Shown: positions 2,565 to 34,468 of the stretch, piece after piece
Position numbering within the stretch: position 1 is the stretch's first letter
Layout of the letters: every line of letters starts with the position of its first letter
UHGV virus genome: UHGV-0180039
Source: a virus
DNA: 37,605 bases
Reading direction: 5' to 3' (one strand)
Made by a program: the position numbers and the translations under genes
The notes under the pieces: generated by a model
The model's database searches: none
Told to the model about the DNA's origin: nothing
The model's input: the letters and a program-made list of their open reading frames with translations, nothing else

Positions 2565-4562
2565 CTATTCTGACAACGAATCAGACTTCGCACCCTGCGT
2601 CATGGCGTTAATTGCCTTTTGTGCCTGCTGCATGGTTTTCTCAAACGCTGTTGATCCGCGTGGGGTGTTTGCCATTCGGAGCATTGCATTTCTGAATGGC
2701 TCGCTCTCATAGGCGCGAGTAAGAAGTCCGTAGCTTACTACTGCGCCAGTTGTCGCCGGGTTCATTGCCGTCCCATACCCAATTATGAACGGGATAGTTT
2801 GCTGCCCTGTGGGTGTTGTTACTGCCGCTTTTACAGCCTGCTGCGTGGATTGCAGGTAGTTTTTTAATCCTTTTAGATAAGCAGCGTCCTGCCCCTTAAA
2901 TGTGATGCCAGTCTGGTTTTGCAGGATGTTAAGCTGCCGAAGGAACTGGTCAGGGGATCCGCCAGATTTCTCCATCGCCTTTCCAATGATGCCATTGCGC
3001 ATTTGCGCCCTGCCAACACGACCAACTGAGTTATACAGAGTCTTAATTTCCGATTTGTTCTTGCTGAATAGCATGTTGTTGACAACTTCCGGCGTCAGGT
3101 CGCCTTTCATGAGAACATTCTTCAGCCTGGTATTCTTTAGTTTCTCCGCTTCGTCAGCGTAGACGGCATTGGCCTGCTGATATTTACGGAGAGTATCGTT
3201 GCCAAGATTCTGACCAATGGCACCATTGATATCGTCAGTCATTGCCTTGTAAACGCGCTGAATGGCGGCATCGGAACGGTTTGGTAACACTGGTCGCTCA
3301 CCCTTCACGTCCATTCTGAACTGGCTGCGCAGATCGCTTAATTGCTTCAAATCCAGATTGACCGGACCATCAGGACCAGCATTGCGAACAAGCTCATCAC
3401 GATATGACTGAAGTTTTGAAATCGTCTCGTTATCAGCGACCTTACCAAGCTTCTGCAGGTTAGATATCTCAGTATCAATCTGCTGAATTGCTCGCACAGG
3501 CTGAATGTTGACTCCCGCCATTGCATTCTGAACCTGTTCAAGTCGATTACCTGCAGCACGACGAATTCCTGATGTTTTCGCTTTAAGGCTTTCAATAACA
3601 ACAGCTGGATCATACTCACCGAATTTATCAGCAAATCTCTGCACCAACTGGCTTCTCGCTTCCTGTTGCGTTGCTCTCATTCCGCTTGTGCCAGCCAGAG
3701 GGATATTTTCTGCTGTAGTCTGCGCCATTTTTCCGACGCGGGAAGTAGGTTGTAACAGGTCTGTGGTGTGCAGAGGCACTCCTTCACGCTCTGCAAACCT
3801 GATAGCCTGTTGCGCTTCTGGCGCTATCGCACCACGAACTCCACGATAAGCAGCACCTAATCCACGTCCGGCAGCGTTAATAGCTCCGCCAGCCAGAACG
3901 CCAACGCCTAAGTCGGTGGCTAGTGCTTCCGCATCATCTTTCACACTGTTTGCAGCAAGTGATCCAACTGCGTTTTCAGCGAGAAGGCGAGTTGCACCCT
4001 GAGCAATTCGACCAGCAAGTGTTGGTGCCTGTGTTGCCGCTCTCTCAACGCCGGCAGGAGTGAGGTAAGGCAATGCTTCAGCAAATACCCTGCCCTCTGT
4101 CGTTTGTGGAGTCAGCGCACCTTGCTGAAGGCCAAAGTCCTGCTCTAATCCATGCGTTGTTACTCGTGGCGCTGGTTGATATGTTCCATCGCCAATGCCG
4201 AGTTTACCGCCAGCCCATGCAGCCGCGCTTGTTACAGCATCGGCAACCGATGCAGGTATGTTTGCCACGTTCACGCCAGCCTGCACCAGTCCGCGACCAG
4301 TCTCTTTTACTGCTTCGCCAAGATCAGACATAAATCCACTTTGCTGTGGTTGTTGCTGTGCTACTGGTTGCTGTGTCTCCACTGGCTGCACAGATGGCAA
4401 TGGATAGGCAGCATAGAAAGCTTGCTTAGCCTGCTCTGCATTTTCTCCGGCTTGCGGGGCAACGACTTCATTGAAGTATTGCTCCTGAGCCTGCGCTTTT
4501 TGTTCTGGTGCTAACGCCTGATACTGTGGAGAGGCGATAACATCTTTCCATGCTTTAGCCAT
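2565..4562 (-). CDS. Ejection (internal virion) protein, P22 gp16-like
   Basis: 665-aa ORF in the conserved P22 order 14-7-20-16 before the tailspike; Ala/Gln-rich composition typical of ejection proteins. Confidence 0.75.
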   Translation of the reverse strand: MAKAWKDVIASPQYQALAPEQKAQAQEQYFNEVVAPQAGENAEQAKQAFYAAYPLPSVQPVETQQPVAQQQPQQSGFMSDLGEAVKETGRGLVQAGVNVANIPASVADAVTSAAAWAGGKLGIGDGTYQPAPRVTTHGLEQDFGLQQGALTPQTTEGRVFAEALPYLTPAGVERAATQAPTLAGRIAQGATRLLAENAVGSLAANSVKDDAEALATDLGVGVLAGGAINAAGRGLGAAYRGVRGAIAPEAQQAIRFAEREGVPLHTTDLLQPTSRVGKMAQTTAENIPLAGTSGMRATQQEARSQLVQRFADKFGEYDPAVVIESLKAKTSGIRRAAGNRLEQVQNAMAGVNIQPVRAIQQIDTEISNLQKLGKVADNETISKLQSYRDELVRNAGPDGPVNLDLKQLSDLRSQFRMDVKGERPVLPNRSDAAIQRVYKAMTDDINGAIGQNLGNDTLRKYQQANAVYADEAEKLKNTRLKNVLMKGDLTPEVVNNMLFSKNKSEIKTLYNSVGRVGRAQMRNGIIGKAMEKSGGSPDQFLRQLNILQNQTGITFKGQDAAYLKGLKNYLQSTQQAVKAAVTTPTGQQTIPFIIGYGTAMNPATTGAVVSYGLLTRAYESEPFRNAMLRMANTPRGSTAFEKTMQQAQKAINAMTQGAKSDSLSE

Positions 4563-26827: not shown

Positions 26828-27121
26828 TCAGAACTCCATCTGGATTTGTTCAGAACGCTCGGTTGCCGCCGGGCGTTTTTTATTGGTGAGAATCGAAGCA
26901 ACTTGTCGTGCCAATCGAGCCATATCGTCGTCAACGACGCCCCATTCAAGAACAGCAAGCAGCATTGAGAACTTTGGAATCCAATCCCTCTTCCACCTGC
27001 TGATCTGCGACTTATCAACTCCCACAGCTTCCGCTGTCTTCTCAGTTCCAAGCATTGCGATTTTGTTAAGCAACGCACTCTCGATTCTTAGAGCCTCGTT
27101 GCGTTTGTTTGCACGAACCAT
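26828..27121 (-). CDS. cII: Transcriptional activator cII (lambda type)
   Basis: From the internal [100 protein letters not shown], near-identical to lambda cII. The 126-aa track ORF is an upstream extension across nutR. Confidence 0.9.
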
Positions 27122-27139
27122 ATGTAAGTATTTCCTTAA

Positions 27140-27173
27140 CAAATAAGAAGTTATGCGCATCAACTTATGCGCG
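27140..27173 (-). terminator. Possible tR1-like hairpin between nutR and cII
   Basis: Palindromic ATGCGCAT arms around a 6-nt loop, followed on the transcript by a U-rich stretch; weak. Confidence 0.3.
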
Positions 27174-27179
27174 TTGTAT

Positions 27180-27223
27180 TCCCGCATTTCTGCGGGAATG
27201 AGGACCATGACTGTTAAAGAGCA
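27180..27223 (-). promoter_or_regulatory. nutR: boxA (UGCUCUUUAACA) plus boxB hairpin (UCCCGCAGAAAUGCGGGA)
   Basis: boxA at 27223..27212 starts 6 nt after the cro stop; 14-nt spacer; 18-nt boxB at 27197..27180 with a 7-bp stem and GAAA loop. Confidence 0.6.
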
Positions 27224-27229
27224 ATTTGC

Positions 27230-27415
27230 TTATGCCGCTTTGCGGTAAGCGCTTTCTTGATACTTCAGGGCGCCAGCTGTAACGACTTCCAGTCGATAGG
27301 CGTCTTTCTCTGGGATGACTTCCTTCCACTGAGAGACTGCTGCGTCGCTAATGCCTAACGCTTTAGCTACAGCACGCTGGGTTCCGAAGTGGTCGATAAC
27401 ATCTTTCTTGTACAT
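27230..27415 (-). CDS. cro: Cro repressor (P22 type)
   Basis: 61 aa MYKKDVIDHFGTQRAVAKALGISDAAVSQWKEVIPEKDAYRLE.VTAGALKYQE.AYR.AA, near-identical to P22 Cro from memory. Confidence 0.95.
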   Translation of the reverse strand: MYKKDVIDHFGTQRAVAKALGISDAAVSQWKEVIPEKDAYRLEVVTAGALKYQESAYRKAA

Positions 27416-27429
27416 AGACTCGCTCCGAA

Positions 27430-27495
27430 ATTAAAGAACACTTAAATTACCCACTAAAGGAATCTTAAGTCAAGTTTATTTAAGATGTCTTAACT
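27430..27495. promoter_or_regulatory. OR1-OR2-OR3 operators (P22 c2/cro type), overlapping PR and PRM
   Basis: Three 18-bp dyad sites: ATTAAAGAACACTTAAAT (27430-27447), ACTAAAGGAATCTTAAGT (27453-27470), ATTTAAGATGTCTTAACT (27478-27495). Confidence 0.7.
27445..27473 (-). promoter_or_regulatory. PR promoter for cro
   Basis: Minus-strand TTGACT (27473..27468), 17-nt spacer, GTAATT (27450..27445). Confidence 0.55.
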
Positions 27496-28146
27496 ATGAA
27501 AACTCAATTGATGGGAGAGCGCATTCGCGCTCGGAGAAAAGAACTCAAGATCAGGCAGGCCGCACTTGGAAAGATGGTCGGCGTGTCTAATGTTGCCATA
27601 TCTCAGTGGGAACGCTCTGAGACAGAGCCAAATGGAGAGAATCTTCTCGCCCTGGCTAATGCGTTGAAGTGTTCCCCTGACTATCTGATGAAAGGAGAGG
27701 AAAGTCTTTCAAACATTGCCTATCACAGTAGGCATGATCCAAGAGGGTCATACCCTCTGATTAGCTGGGTGAGCGCAGGATGCTGGATGGAAGCTGTAGA
27801 ACCATATCATAAGCGTGCAATAGATAACTGGTACGATACAACCGTAGACTGTTCAGAAGATTCGTTTTGGTTGGACGTGAAGGGAGACTCAATGACGGCT
27901 CCGGCCGGTCTCAGTATCCCTGAAGGAATGATAATACTCGTCGATCCTGAAGTAGAGCCGCGTAACGGGAAACTGGTAGTTGCAAAGCTCGAAGGAGAAA
28001 ACGAGGCAACTTTCAAGAAGTTAGTTATTGATGCAGGCAGGAAGTTTCTAAAACCACTTAACCCACAATATCCGATGATCGAGATCAACGGAAACTGCAA
28101 AATCATCGGCGTAGTTGTCGATGCAAAACTAGCAAACCTTCCATAA
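27496..28146 (+). CDS. c2: Immunity repressor C2 (P22 type; LexA/S24-like C-terminal domain)
   Basis: 216 aa MKTQLMGERIRARRKELKIRQAALGKMVGVSNVAISQWERSETEPNGENLLAL..., near-identical to P22 c2 from memory; C-terminal Ser/Lys autocleavage-type domain (DVKGDSM ... VAKL). Confidence 0.95.
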   Translation: MKTQLMGERIRARRKELKIRQAALGKMVGVSNVAISQWERSETEPNGENLLALANALKCSPDYLMKGEESLSNIAYHSRHDPRGSYPLISWVSAGCWMEAVEPYHKRAIDNWYDTTVDCSEDSFWLDVKGDSMTAPAGLSIPEGMIILVDPEVEPRNGKLVVAKLEGENEATFKKLVIDAGRKFLKPLNPQYPMIEINGNCKIIGVVVDAKLANLP

Positions 28147-28170
28147 GGGGGCATTCGCCCCCTTTTTTTT
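28147..28170 (+). terminator. Intrinsic terminator directly after c2
   Basis: GGGGGC-ATTC-GCCCCC followed by eight T residues. Confidence 0.75.
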
Positions 28171-28194
28171 ATTTCCTTTAAAAATCAAAGCCAA

Positions 28195-28267
28195 ACTTAA
28201 GTTACGAAAGAAAATTTAAGTTTTCTTCAAAAATACTCTTGACCATTAATTAAAGAGATCTTAAATT
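28195..28267 (+). promoter_or_regulatory. OL operators and PL promoter
   Basis: Operator ATTAAAGAGATCTTAAAT (28249-28266) plus weaker upstream half-site matches (ATTTAAG); -35 TTGACC (28239-28244), 17-nt spacer, -10 TAAATT (28262-28267). Confidence 0.55.
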
Positions 28268-28312
28268 TAAGCCATCAGCAGGACGCTGGAAGCCAAACGG
28301 AACAGATTGGCA

Positions 28313-28354
28313 GGCTCTTTAACATTGATGGGATTGTCCCGCCGAAATGCGGGA
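28313..28354 (+). promoter_or_regulatory. nutL: boxA (GGCUCUUUAACA) plus boxB hairpin (UCCCGCCGAAAUGCGGGA)
   Basis: boxA 28313-28324, 12-nt spacer, boxB 28337-28354; boxB differs from the nutR boxB at one position. Confidence 0.6.
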
Positions 28355-28755
28355 ACCAAAGAGTAGTTGGCTTTGGGATTGGATGAATGAGCAGGCTGAT
28401 GCTCGACCAATGTATAAACAGCGCTCATGGCAAGCAGTAACCAATCTGCGCCTCAAGACAGCGTCACTGGTAGTGCGGGCGCTCTAACCAGTAAGCCGGA
28501 GTTCAGCACCGGCCATCCAATCGCCAAAGTCAATTCCATAGGCGTTATGCAGCCGCCACCATATTCAAGAAAGCTGCACAAGAGGTAGGAGGATTTATGT
28601 GAATACTTACATTCAATTGAGAGGTTAATTAAATAGAACTGATCGAGCAGAGTCCATAAAGGCTCATAAATGCTCTTCCATCCCCGTCTAATTGGCGGGG
28701 AAGGAAACCACTTTGTAATAAAAAAAATTCCAAAGTTGTTTCATCGGAGGTCAAC

Positions 28756-29055
28756 ATGACAGTAGTCATTACATATCTGGCTGACGATAACGCCAGAAAT
28801 CGCCGCAGAGCACGCAGACAGGCTCAACGTGAACAGGCAATGCAAGAGCAGCGACTGGCGCGAAAAATTGCGCTAAAGCTCTCTGGTTGCGTCAGAGCAG
28901 ATAAAGCAGCATCACTCGGAAGCCTTTGCTGCAAGAAGGCAGATGAAGTCGAGCGTAAACAGAACCGTATTTACTACCGCAAGCCACGCAGTGAAATGGG
29001 TGTGACTTGTGTTGGTCGCCAGAAAATGAAATTAGGCAGCAAACCACTTATTTGA
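28756..29055 (+). CDS. N: Antiterminator N (phage 21/lambda-like C-terminus, distinct arginine-rich N-terminus)
   Basis: 99 aa; arginine-rich motif DDNARNRRRARRQAQREQ at the N-terminus; C-terminal ...RKIALKLSGCVRADKAASLGSL.CKKADEVERKQNRIYY.KPRSEMGVTCVGRQKMKLGSKPLI resembles phage 21 N from memory; SD GGAGG upstream. Confidence 0.85.
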   Translation: MTVVITYLADDNARNRRRARRQAQREQAMQEQRLARKIALKLSGCVRADKAASLGSLCCKKADEVERKQNRIYYRKPRSEMGVTCVGRQKMKLGSKPLI

Positions 29056-29534: not shown

Positions 29535-29638
29535 TACGAGTAAGCACTGTGTATTCATTCCAACGAGTGAATACACGGAGCAATGTCGCTCGTAACTAAA
29601 CAGGAGCCGACTTGTTCTGATTATTGGAAATCTTCTTT

Positions 29639-29664
29639 GCCCTCCAGTGTGAGGGCGATTTTTT
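29639..29664 (+). terminator. Intrinsic terminator between the two moron genes
   Basis: GCCCTC-CAGTGT-GAGGGC followed by GATTTTTTAT. Confidence 0.65.
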
Positions 29665-30053: not shown

Positions 30054-30146
30054 GCGCGGCTTTACCGCATACCAATAATGCTTCACGAGAGGTGTTTATT
30101 CATGAGCGTAAACGCTGATTAATGAACGCAGTTGATAGGATATAAA

Positions 30147-30659
30147 ATGGCATTTATAAAGATTCTTGAATTAATTTCCCTAAGTGAGATTAATAATGTT
30201 GTCAAATATAACCCTATTTCTGGTGAGTTCACATGGCTAAAATCTTATGGAGCAAGGAAGATAGGTGGAACTGCCGGAACAATAACAACAAGCGGCTACT
30301 TAAGGATTTTCATTAACGGAAGACACTATGCTGCACATAGACTTGCATGGATTATCACTTTCGGTGTTGAGCCTGAAGGTATTATCGACCATATAAATGG
30401 CATAAAGACAGATAACAGAATTTGCAATCTGAGGCTTGCAACTTACTCACAGAATTCAATGAATAGTAAAATAAACACCCTCAACAAATCAGGTTGCAAA
30501 GGAGTCACATGGAAGAAGGAAAGTAGAAAGTGGGCTGCCTATGGGAAATTAAACGGGAAGAAAAAACATCTAGGGTACTTTAATGAATTAGAAGATGCCA
30601 AAAAAGCTTACTGCGACTTTGCCAGAAAGCATCACGGCGAATTCTACAGGAGCAAATAA
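30147..30659 (+). CDS. HNH homing endonuclease (HNH_3-type motif plus AP2-like DNA-binding domain)
   Basis: Motifs HRLAWIITFG...IDHINGIKTDNRICNLRL and AP2-like GVTWKKESRKWAAYGKLNGKKKHLGYFNELEDAKKAY. Track start 30132 is TTG; ATG at 30147 with an AGGA SD is more likely. Confidence 0.8.
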   Translation: MAFIKILELISLSEINNVVKYNPISGEFTWLKSYGARKIGGTAGTITTSGYLRIFINGRHYAAHRLAWIITFGVEPEGIIDHINGIKTDNRICNLRLATYSQNSMNSKINTLNKSGCKGVTWKKESRKWAAYGKLNGKKKHLGYFNELEDAKKAYCDFARKHHGEFYRSK

Positions 30660-33977: not shown

Positions 33978-34468
33978 TGGTCATTTCACCTATAACGCTG
34001 AAAGCGGCGCAGGAATTTATCGCACAGCACCACCGACACAATAAACCACCAGTGGGGCATAAATTCAGCATTGGTCTGAGAAATAATGCCGGAGAATTGA
34101 TAGGTGTGGCGACAGCTGGTCGACCTGTTGCACGACATTTCGACGATGGATTAACGCTTGAAGTAAATCGCACATGTACCACAGGAGAACGCAACGCTAA
34201 CAGCGCGCTTTATGGTGCTATCTGGCGGGCAGCAAAAGCTATGGGTTATCAACGTTGTATTACGTACACCCAGGCAGATGAATCAGGAGCATCTCTTCGC
34301 GCAGCTGGTTTTGTTCGTGTGAAAGAGCTTCCTCCAAGAAAAAGCTGGGCGGAATCAAGCGTCGCCCTGCGGAGTAAACGCGATCCGGTCGGAAACGGTG
34401 GTATTCCTCGTGTGCTCTGGGAAATCAGGAGAATGAGTACCACTGGCATTCGCATCAAAGGAGAGTGA
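33974..34468 (+). CDS. Hypothetical 164-aa protein
   Basis: ORF overlapping the Ea22-like stop; no family confidently recognised. Confidence 0.45.
   Translation: MMVISPITLKAAQEFIAQHHRHNKPPVGHKFSIGLRNNAGELIGVATAGRPVARHFDDGLTLEVNRTCTTGERNANSALYGAIWRAAKAMGYQRCITYTQADESGASLRAAGFVRVKELPPRKSWAESSVALRSKRDPVGNGGIPRVLWEIRRMSTTGIRIKGE

Follow-up and report, generated by a model that had tools for sequence, protein, structure and literature searches.

The 37,605-nucleotide viral stretch analyzed here (the window) raises the question of whether two hairpins on opposite strands around its repressor gene belong to a nutL/nutR pair of a lambdoid prophage and, if so, which N protein they would serve. The original prediction, made from the letters, had proposed matched nut sites with an rrn-like boxA, an 18-nt boxB unlike that of lambda or P22, and a distinct N-boxB pairing. 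Sequence, position, orientation and fold bear out a matched nutL/nutR pair in a lambdoid immunity region, and the two sites are very probably the nutR (27180–27222, minus strand) and the nutL (28314–28354, plus strand) of an E. coli prophage that is P22-like and related to CUS-3/HK620.

The boxA element GCTCTTTAACA occurs exactly at only two places in the 37.6-kb window, positions 27212–27222 on the minus strand and 28314–28324 on the plus strand. The nutR copy, GCUCUUUAACA, equals the boxA-R of phage 21; the nutL copy is also exact, and its leader and boxA are the same in HK620, CUS-3 and phage 21. At both sites this CGCUCUUUA-type consensus lies on the transcribed strand, 5′ of boxB. A third boxA-like match with one mismatch (34318–34328, minus strand) lies in the left operon in antisense orientation, with no hairpin following, and was therefore taken as a chance match. 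The window boxA is identical at 11 of 11 positions to the core of the E. coli rrn leader boxA, and the nutR boxA with its preceding U matches 12 of the 13 positions of rrn UGCUCUUUAACAA, a leader sequence confirmed in all 5,426 E. coli genomes examined. The rrn-like boxA proposed for both sites is thus confirmed, yet it is common to phage 21 exactly. P22 has CGCUCUUUA(A/C)C as its boxA, and lambda has CGCUCUUA, which is weaker for NusB; NusB binds the rrn boxA ∼17 times more tightly than the lambda nutL boxA (130 nM versus 2200 nM; PMC2800207). The boxB-like hairpin of rrn operons lies 5′ of boxA, with no phage N involved (PMC10250234).

The pattern of the hairpin, TCCCGCMGAAATGCGGGA, was found exactly twice, at 27180–27197 on the minus strand with A and at 28337–28354 on the plus strand with C, and none of 100 shuffled controls gave two matches. 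As RNA, the 18-nt boxBs read UCCCGC(C/A)GAAAUGCGGGA. The nutR boxB, UCCCGC-A-GAAA-U-GCGGGA, differs from the annotated nutR of HK620 only at loop-flank position 7, where HK620 has C, and is predicted to fold into 7 bp with a GAAA loop (−12.0 kcal/mol). The nutL boxB, UCCCGC-C-GAAA-U-GCGGGA, equals the annotated nutL of HK620 and is predicted to form 6 bp with a CGAAAU loop, in which the GAAA tetraloop is flanked by C·U (−9.7 kcal/mol). The loop is in each case a four-nucleotide GNRA, bracketed by C·U with six unpaired nucleotides or, in the window nutR, by A-U. Neither boxB has the Watson-Crick-closed pentaloop of the lambda/P22 type (GAAAA, GAAGA or GACAA), and the CGAAAU loop is not the CUAACC (UMAC) hexaloop of the phage 21 type. 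Because the GNRA consensus is kept, the window boxB plausibly works like lambda/P22-type boxBs without being a member of that type. An Rfam scan of the whole window returned no family at gathering score.

Each boxA-boxB pair is on the sense strand of its own divergent early transcript, PR or PL. nutR lies on the PR transcript just 3′ of cro and begins 7 nt past the stop codon of this gene, which is of the P22/21 type (27230–27415, minus strand; Pfam P22_Cro, E 9e-28). The tR1 region lies between nutR and the first gene past it, a lambda-type cII of 97 aa (26828–27121, minus strand; Pfam Phage_CII, E 2e-48); the HK620 record has tR1 directly after nutR. nutL lies on the PL transcript ∼40 nt past its start, with the N gene downstream; the PL promoter candidate, TTGACC-17-TAAATT (28239–28267, plus strand), matches in position the annotated pL of HK620 and phage 21. 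Between the nut sites is a prophage repressor of the P22 c2/imm21 type (27496–28146, plus strand; Pfam HTH_3 and Peptidase_S24). The distance from boxA to boxB is 14 nt in nutR and 12 nt in nutL, in keeping with the short stable hairpin about 8–15 nt past boxA, with no U-tract after it, that is typical of lambdoid nut sites. The placement of nutR between cro and tR1/cII and of nutL between PL and N is also that of a lambdoid nut site, and agrees with the annotated features of HK620, phage 21, P22 and lambda. Just past the nutL boxB begins a long hairpin of the N leader (28365–28535, plus strand), whose 5′ arm GGCUUUGGGAUUGGAUG is a boxC-like element; this stem has equivalents in lambda, HK620, CUS-3 and phage 21, and both arm sequences change together. 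An intrinsic-terminator-like hairpin with a U-tract past N and orf156 (29637–29658, plus strand) is a candidate tL that N would override.

GC-rich perfect inverted repeats that flank an immunity region might instead be intrinsic terminators or protein-bound DNA palindromes, rather than RNA elements for N. To this reading we assign next to no probability, and it was ruled out by the missing U-tract, the strand-specific linkage to boxA and the RNA-level covariation of the stem. Neither GC-rich hairpin is followed by a U-tract and the terminator scan calls neither of them; boxA lies 10–14 nt 5′ of the hairpin on the transcribed strand, in relatives too; and the repressor operators are located elsewhere. 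In relatives from Pantoea, Erwinia and IMG/VR, the loop stays (C/A)-GNRA-U (GAAA, GCAA, GAGA or GGAA) and the stem covaries. Among about 18 distinct distant sequences, all of which had passed a filter demanding partial pairing, stem pairing is kept in 88% of cells versus 37–60% in slid registers, and five of the eight pairs changed on both sides. These compensatory stem changes around a constant GNRA loop indicate a constraint at the RNA level. Since boxB is invariant within E. coli, the covariation evidence comes from distant sequences only.

As RNA elements, the two sites are already known: judged by sequence, they are the same as those annotated in HK620, with the GenBank feature tables as source of the prior description (NC_002730/AF335538; ‘nutL/nutR; putative N-utilization’). 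The boxA, spacer and boxB of the HK620 nutL all equal those of the window, as do the boxA and spacer of its nutR, which has C where the window nutR has A, 5′ of GAAA. The sites also match boxA features annotated in HK630, HK140 and mEpX2, and the nutL 54-mer is found exactly in 26 phage records and, among 5,426 complete E. coli genomes, in 487. The finding holds up, but it is an ordinary one, with the same sites annotated in HK620 and present in ∼9% of complete E. coli genomes. HK620 differs from the window in its immunity genes, which are HK620-type and not P22/21-type, and a further difference is an ∼300 nt longer leader between nutL and N. The best overall match is CUS-3 (CP000711), a P22-like prophage of E. 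coli K1 that is 98.7% identical over cII-cro-cI-nutL-N. Its N is 97% identical, it has in common with the window a ∼207-nt insertion 5′ of N, and both of its boxBs have C. The CUS-3 record is without nut annotation; a ‘bsq5 boundary sequence’ encloses nutL, and cII is annotated with a start inside nutR.

The boxBs of nutL and nutR differ by one base, a difference that had been likened to the one in lambda. It is real in the window, but it results from a private SNP at 27191 (minus strand; the plus strand has T and the RNA A, against C in the RNA of relatives) and does not characterize the family. The lambda difference between GAAGA and GAAAA is often described as functional, and the window variant could likewise be read as a selected asymmetry that tunes leftward versus rightward antitermination. 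The A does give an A-U closing pair and a hairpin more stable by ∼2.3 kcal/mol, and A is found at the same position in natural relatives with GAGA or GGAA loops. Selection is nevertheless very unlikely. C is present at every other E. coli-type site examined, left and right alike (224 nutL and about 195 nutR occurrences), and the nutR 54-mer is found in 455 E. coli genomes with one mismatch in all and an exact match in none. In the nearest genome, NZ_CP151071, with just 10 differences over 5,911 bp, the plus-strand base at 27191 is G, and a search of IMG/VR for the A-variant boxB gave nine matches, all of them unrelated hairpins without boxA. Such a pattern is that of a private mutation of recent origin, or of an error in sequencing, and the variant probably has a neutral effect.

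The N protein that would recognize these sites is encoded in the same early-left operon (28756–29055, plus strand; 99 aa). Its match to PHROG 271, ‘anti-termination protein N-like’, has an E value of 5e-37, and it can be aligned with lambda N; the Pfam N_peptide family scored below its cut-off (19 bits versus 27.9). Residues 1–64 are HK620-type (95–97% identical; 95% to HK620 itself), and residues 37–99 are of the phage 21/lambda type, with ∼94% identity to the N of phage 21. Over the last 35 aa, identity to lambda N is 57%, and the C-terminus, a polymerase-binding segment common to both proteins, aligns with the lambda N of the antitermination complex structure (PDB 6GOV). The C-terminal third of the HK620 N is H-19B/P22-type (…YAAGYRKSKQLTAR), whereas that of the window N is lambda/21-type (…GVTCVGRQKMKLGSKPLI). 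The N-terminal ARM (residues 10–28, DDNARNRRRARRQAQREQA; codons at 28783–28839, plus strand) is a predicted boxB-binding helix of the HK620/CUS-3 type, identical to that of HK620.

The HK620 class is characterized by the boxB UCCCGCCGAAAUGCGGGA together with the ARM DDNARNRRRARRQAQREQ, and the window has both, its nutR being one base off, at 27191. In all likelihood the ARM-boxB pair of the window belongs to this specificity class, which joins those of lambda, P22 and 21 as a fourth. The boxB type co-varies with the ARM type, whether sampling starts from the protein or from the RNA. Loci found through the N protein have a boxB of the window type in 79 of 80 cases. In the other direction, this boxB occurs 207 times in 120 IMG/VR loci, with boxA or a one-mismatch boxA ahead of 206 of them. 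Downstream sequence is sufficient at 92 nutL sites, and at least 88 of these have an ARM of the window type. An HK620-type ARM follows 85, and among the remaining seven at least four show variants of it that differ by a single residue or have diverged. No lambda, P22 or 21 ARM follows any of these 92 sites. Module swaps are also seen, in which a common N C-terminal module carries a lambda, P22, 21 or HK620 ARM, each with the matching boxB. Across ∼330 loci, GACAA boxBs never went with an HK620-type ARM, nor (C/A)GNRAU boxBs with a P22-class ARM. Strict co-inheritance of this kind is as distinct specificities predict, and it lends support to the proposed distinct N-boxB pairing.

Comparison with the known systems places the hairpin more precisely. 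Lambda has the same operon layout, boxA-spacer-boxB order and boxC-like leader stem as the window; its boxB has a 5-bp stem with a GAAAA or GAAGA pentaloop, and its ARM, MDAQTRRRERRAEKQAQW, has a Trp without counterpart in the window ARM. Phage 21, which together with HK97 and HK022 had been suggested for comparison, shares the boxA exactly and is identical to the window over the ∼40 nt of PL leader up to boxA. HK97 falls outside the class of the window, its N being H-19B-type with P22-like GACAA boxBs. HK022 uses Nun and put RNA in place of N and nut. The phage 21 boxB has a six-nucleotide loop with a four-nucleotide GNRA-like turn in a C·C pair (PDB 1NYB, as described in PMC12550061). The two hairpins have in common this 1+4+1 architecture with a pyrimidine-pyrimidine flank, but the phage 21 loop is CUAACC (UMAC) and the window loop CGAAAU (GNRA), the stem sequences are unrelated, and the phage 21 ARM is GTAKSRYKARRAELIAERR.

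P22 is closer. Its nutR boxB has in common with the window the CCGC/GCGG stem, a non-Watson-Crick pyrimidine flank and a GNRA-type loop, and the P22-class sequence CCGC-C-GACAA-C-GCGG compares with CCGC-C-GAAA-U-GCGG in the window (with the outer pairs, (C)CCGC-C-GACAA-C-GCGG(G) and CCCGC-C-GAAA-U-GCGGG). The claim that boxB is unlike that of lambda or P22 is too strong for P22, since without its looped-out C the P22-class nutR boxB would be almost the window hairpin. On the protein side, P22 gp24 and the window N have in common the N-terminus MTV(V)ITY… and the core NA(K/R)xRRxxRR, with 10 of 22 residues identical over the ARM; the rest of gp24 is unrelated. This near-identity of the hairpins, with the core N-A-(K/R)-x-R-R-x-x-R-R kept, would also suit functional nut sites whose specificity is not distinct, the HK620-type N and boxB cross-reacting with a P22-type or lambda-type system, and a GNRA-like fold is indeed read by both lambda and P22 N (PMC12550061; PMC9074901). 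We regard cross-reaction as unlikely, though less so than a selected left/right asymmetry. The window boxB has a plain GAAA tetraloop and does not have the looped-out C of the P22 GACAA pentaloop, a base that touches a His and an Arg of the peptide (PMC12550061). The window ARM has Arg at the position of that P22 His, and swapped ARM and boxB types are absent from the ∼330 loci.

A distinct HK620-type pairing would operate as follows. RNA polymerase starting from PR (minus strand) or PL (plus strand) would transcribe boxA and then boxB. The rrn-consensus boxA would recruit host NusB-S10, and the N-terminal ARM (residues about 10–28) would bind the GNRA tetraloop of boxB within its C·U pair, or A-U in the window nutR. 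The phage 21/lambda-type middle and C-terminal parts of N, with NusA and NusG, would make the polymerase termination-resistant, enabling it to pass tR1 and the leftward terminators. No binding or antitermination experiments on the HK620/CUS-3 N-boxB class were found in the searchable open literature, and its function therefore rests on homology and co-inheritance; from these we infer N binding, Nus-factor dependence and antitermination activity at the window nut sites.

For genome annotation little is gained, as the HK620 record already annotates the exact sequence of this textbook nut pair. CUS-3-like records do present an annotation problem, in that nutL and nutR are left unannotated or are overlapped by mis-started ORFs. 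The value lies in RNA-protein recognition and synthetic biology. A sister class, with near-identical stems in Pantoea and Erwinia prophages, has the ARM NAKxRYRARR together with CUNRCA hexaloops and may represent a natural ‘specificity switch’. The chances seem about even that the HK620-class ARM and boxB form a fourth orthogonal pair, with a true GNRA tetraloop in a C·U/A-U bracket and no looped-out base, structurally between the pentaloop of P22 nutR and the hexaloop of phage 21. The comparative data amount to a natural mutagenesis series in which the GNRA loop varies, the flanks are C·U or A-U, and a sister ARM containing Tyr goes with another loop, and the class would add an orthogonal peptide-hairpin pair.

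The sites lie in a lambdoid immunity region whose 'leftward' direction is on the plus strand. A lambda-type cII (26828–27121, −) precedes nutR in coordinate order, and nutR adjoins a P22/21-type cro (27230–27415, −). These are followed by a repressor of the P22 c2/imm21 type (27496–28146, +) with its own terminator at 28145–28164, a PL-like promoter (28239–28267, +), nutL, a structured plus-strand leader of about 400 nt, and the N gene (28756–29055, +); a terminator-like hairpin with a U-tract (29637–29658, +) lies 3' of N. The N protein hits PHROG 271 ('anti-termination protein N-like') at E 5e-37, and over its C-terminal 35 residues it shares 57% identity with the part of lambda N seen in the antitermination complex 6GOV. 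The longest cII ORF (126 aa, 26828–27208, −) begins within nutR and crosses boxB, and this long form is annotated in CUS-3 (CP000711, 31969–32349); the 97-aa lambda-like cII starting at 27121 is supported by a Pfam CII match and by the RefSeq annotation of E. coli 22KM0354. An HNH endonuclease ORF (30132–30659, +), labeled from the near-identical prophage of the same strain, is located in the early-left operon 3' of N.

The boxA sequence GCTCTTTAACA and the boxB pattern TCCCGCMGAAATGCGGGA each occur as two exact copies in the 37.6-kb window: boxA at 27212–27222 (−) and 28314–28324 (+), and boxB at 27180–27197 (−), where M is A, and 28337–28354 (+), where M is C. Two boxB-pattern matches were obtained in 0 of 100 shuffles. 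The boxA–boxB spacer is 14 nt in nutR, which starts 7 nt past the cro stop, and 12 nt in nutL, about 40 nt past the PL start. The nutR boxB (A allele) folds into 7 bp and GAAA (−12.0 kcal/mol) and the nutL boxB (C allele) into 6 bp and CGAAAU (−9.7 kcal/mol); neither hairpin has a U-tract on its 3' side or is called by the terminator scan. The original prediction of a lambdoid nutL/nutR pair is borne out by these exact copies, both in sense orientation to their own transcripts, and the sites are correctly identified as ordinary, already-annotated nut sites. A third boxA-like site, GCTCTTTCACA at 34318–34328 (−), was rejected as a chance match, having one mismatch and no downstream hairpin and being antisense to the left operon.

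The rrn-like character claimed for boxA was also confirmed. Over the 11-nt core it is identical to the rrn leader boxA UGCUCUUUAACAA, a sequence present in 5,426 of 5,426 E. coli genomes (median seven copies), whereas lambda has CGCUCUUAA and CGCUCUUAC and P22 has CGCUCUUUAAC and CGCUCUUUACC. Such a boxA is not a new feature: phage 21 carries exactly the same one at both nut sites, together with about 40 nt of PL leader identical to the window, and it is likewise annotated in HK630, HK140, and mEpX2. NusB binds the rrn boxA with a Kd of 130 nM, compared with 2200 nM for the lambda nutL boxA (PMC2800207); by analogy, strong NusB–S10 recruitment may reasonably be expected at the window boxA.

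The nut-site type as a whole is already known and is annotated in the HK620 record as 'nutL; putative N-utilization leftward' and 'nutR'. HK620 nutL is identical to that of the window, its nutR differs solely in having C rather than A just 5' of GAAA, and its N shares 95% identity with the window N over residues 1–64, a stretch that includes the whole arginine-rich motif (ARM). The closest phage match is CUS-3 (98.7% identity). Exact copies of the nutL 54-mer occur in 26 phage records and, among 5,426 complete E. coli genomes, in 487; close relatives of the window N are encoded in at least 565 IMG/VR stretches. In the literature searched, this very common HK620-type N/boxB class seems to have had no biochemical test.

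The one-base difference between left and right boxB, likened in the original prediction to that of lambda, is real in the window but is a private SNP, the E. coli-type relatives examined having C in both sites. Across 240 loci of the HK620-type ARM class, C was found at 224 nutL and about 195 nutR sites of the E. coli type, and A-GAAA-U only in the window; IMG/VR loci with a window-type N have C in nutL and nutR wherever the sites fall inside the fetched DNA. The nutR 54-mer matches 455 E. coli genomes, each with one mismatch (0/455 exact), and C is also the base corresponding to window position 27191 in the nearest genome, E. coli 22KM0354, which shows only 10 differences in 5,911 bp. The lambda analogy therefore fails for the family. 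The A-variant 18-mer has nine matches in IMG/VR, all of them unrelated hairpins that lack a boxA. The A allele is probably tolerated, since A occurs naturally at the 5' loop flank with GAGA and GGAA loops in distant relatives.

The description of boxB as unlike lambda or P22 holds for loop length and not for the expected fold type. The P22-class nutR boxB, (C)CCGC-C-GACAA-C-GCGG(G), and the HK620-type CCCGC-C-GAAA-U-GCGGG share the stem and a pyrimidine flank; the latter loop has one C deleted and one C-to-U change. The P22 complex has that same C looped out of its GNRA-like fold and touching a peptide His and Arg; in the complex of phage 21, the hexaloop CUAACC makes a GNRA-like turn of four nt with a C.C pair on its flanks (PMC12550061). 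Set against these structures, the HK620-type boxB unites a 1+4+1 loop arrangement like that of phage 21 with a GNRA sequence like that of lambda and P22. Through the ARM, the N-terminus of the window N shows a weak alignment to P22 gp24 (10/22 identical).

The distinct N–boxB pairing that had been proposed is supported, short of proof, by co-inheritance. Among phages having one N C-terminal module (…GVTCVGRQKMKLGSKPLI), four N-termini each come with their own boxB: ARM MDAQTRRRERRAEKQAQW with GCCCUGAAGAAGGGC (Sf101, mEp043), GNAKTRRHERRR with GCGCUGACAAAGCGC (SH2026Stx1), GTAKSRYKARR with UCUCAACCUAACCGUUGAGA (21, phiv205-1, mEp235, PA28, mEpX1), and DDNARNRRRARRQAQREQ with UCCCGCCGAAAUGCGGGA (window, CUS-3). 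HK620 carries the last combination on a different, H-19B-type C-terminus. Reverse sampling from boxB gave 207 occurrences in 120 loci, 204 of them 3' of an exact boxA and 2 more 3' of a one-mismatch boxA. Of the 92 nutL sites whose downstream sequence was long enough, 85 have an HK620-type ARM on the 3' side; at least 4 of the remaining 7 carry a variant of that ARM, either diverged or changed at one residue (e.g., DTAKNRRRERRAALRDQA), and another ARM class was found at 0 of the 92. The leader aligns almost identically with that of phage 21 except in a small cassette around boxB, which has its counterpart in a cassette at the N 5' end. Franklin, in 1985, reportedly described the same cassette pattern for lambda, 21, and P22. 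Taken as sequence evidence, ARM–boxB co-inheritance supports a distinct specificity.

Other combinations were seen. Two further N-like pairings, of neither lambda, P22, 21, nor HK620 type, come from IMG/VR loci (L238, L243, and L337, and L249–L253 and L341–L356): ARM SKSRRMRERGEHY with boxB UCUACCGCCGCUUGCGGUAGA, and ARM SRRYLKRGELIAKRR with boxB UCUCCCGCCCUUGUGGGAGA and UCCCCGCCCGUGUGGGGA. HK97 (L226, NC_002167; 919–1409, −, and 3750–3895, +) has an H-19B-type N with ARM …GNSRSRRRERLKAK… and P22-like boxBs GCGCUGACAAAGCGC and UCGCUGACAAAGCGA; a boxA pattern search found no consensus boxA 5' of the left one. One IMG/VR locus (L057, IMGVR_UViG_2703718791_000008, about 2200–2500) couples the window-type nutL boxB and N to a lambda-type OL/PL (…TATCTCTGGCGGTGTTGACA…) lying ahead of them; its boxA, GCACTTTAACA, carries one mismatch. 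Together with nutL-to-nutR distances of about 1.15 to 3 kb among relatives, this locus indicates that the nut/N module is shuffled among several immunity types.

In a distant sample of Pantoea and Erwinia genomes and further IMG/VR contigs, N proteins with ARM [DS]NARNRRRA[RK]R always accompany a (C or A)-G-N-R-A-U loop, with GAAA, GCAA, GAGA, and GGAA tetraloops and varied stems (UCCCGC/GCGGGA, UCUCCGC/GCGGGGA, GCUCCCGC/GCAGGAGC, GCUCCCAC/GUCGGAGC). Over 18 distinct sequences, stem pairing was found in 88% of cells versus 37–60% in slid registers, a percentage inflated because the extraction filter admitted only sites complementary at the top two pairs and at four of the six below them; this bears less on the both-sided changes (5 of 8 stem pairs) and on the slid-register control. 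A sister N class with ARM NAK[SNTMA]RYRARR (NAK[SNTMA]RYRARRAAKREQ), at Pantoea-type loci L229, L232, L233, L246, L255, L258, L259, and L261, has very similar stems and phage 21-like CUNRCA hexaloops (CUAACA, CUUACA, CUAGCA, CUGACA). The nutR stems of L229 and L230 are identical and the loop alone differs (CUAAUC vs CGAAAU). The sister and GNRA classes thus appear, from these comparisons, to be a natural ARM/loop specificity switch.

Directly 3' of the nutL boxB, the N leader forms a long hairpin (28365–28535, +; −74 kcal/mol for 28355–28540), and the 501-nt leader as a whole has a z-score of −5.2. The 5' arm is a boxC-like GGCUUUGGG… element. Equivalent stems are present in lambda, HK620, CUS-3, and phage 21, their arms differing yet changing together (GGUGUGUG/CACACACC, GGUGACGUG/CGCGUCACC, GAUGGCGCG/CGCGUCAU, GAUUGGAUG/CAUCCAAUC); we take the window hairpin to be, probably, the counterpart of the lambda RNase III-sensitive N-leader stem. 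The interior of the window hairpin (28386–28510, +) is replaced and enlarged by about 86 nt relative to CUS-3 and HK620, and includes a degenerate boxA-like GCGCTCTAACC. About 207 nt are inserted between this hairpin and the N ribosome-binding site (28534–28740, +), including a small hairpin CCCCGUCUAAUUGGCGGGG (about 28682–28700) and an A-run; the insertion is shared with CUS-3 (L001 about 3110–3320), where the whole interval is labeled 'bsq5 boundary sequence', and is absent from HK620 and phage 21.

We propose that boxA of the nascent RNA would bind NusB–S10 and the N ARM helix the boxB GNRA hairpin, while N would engage NusA and RNA polymerase through its middle and C-terminal segments of phage 21/lambda type. 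The polymerase so modified would then read through tR1, placed between nutR and cII by the HK620 annotation, and through the leftward terminators.
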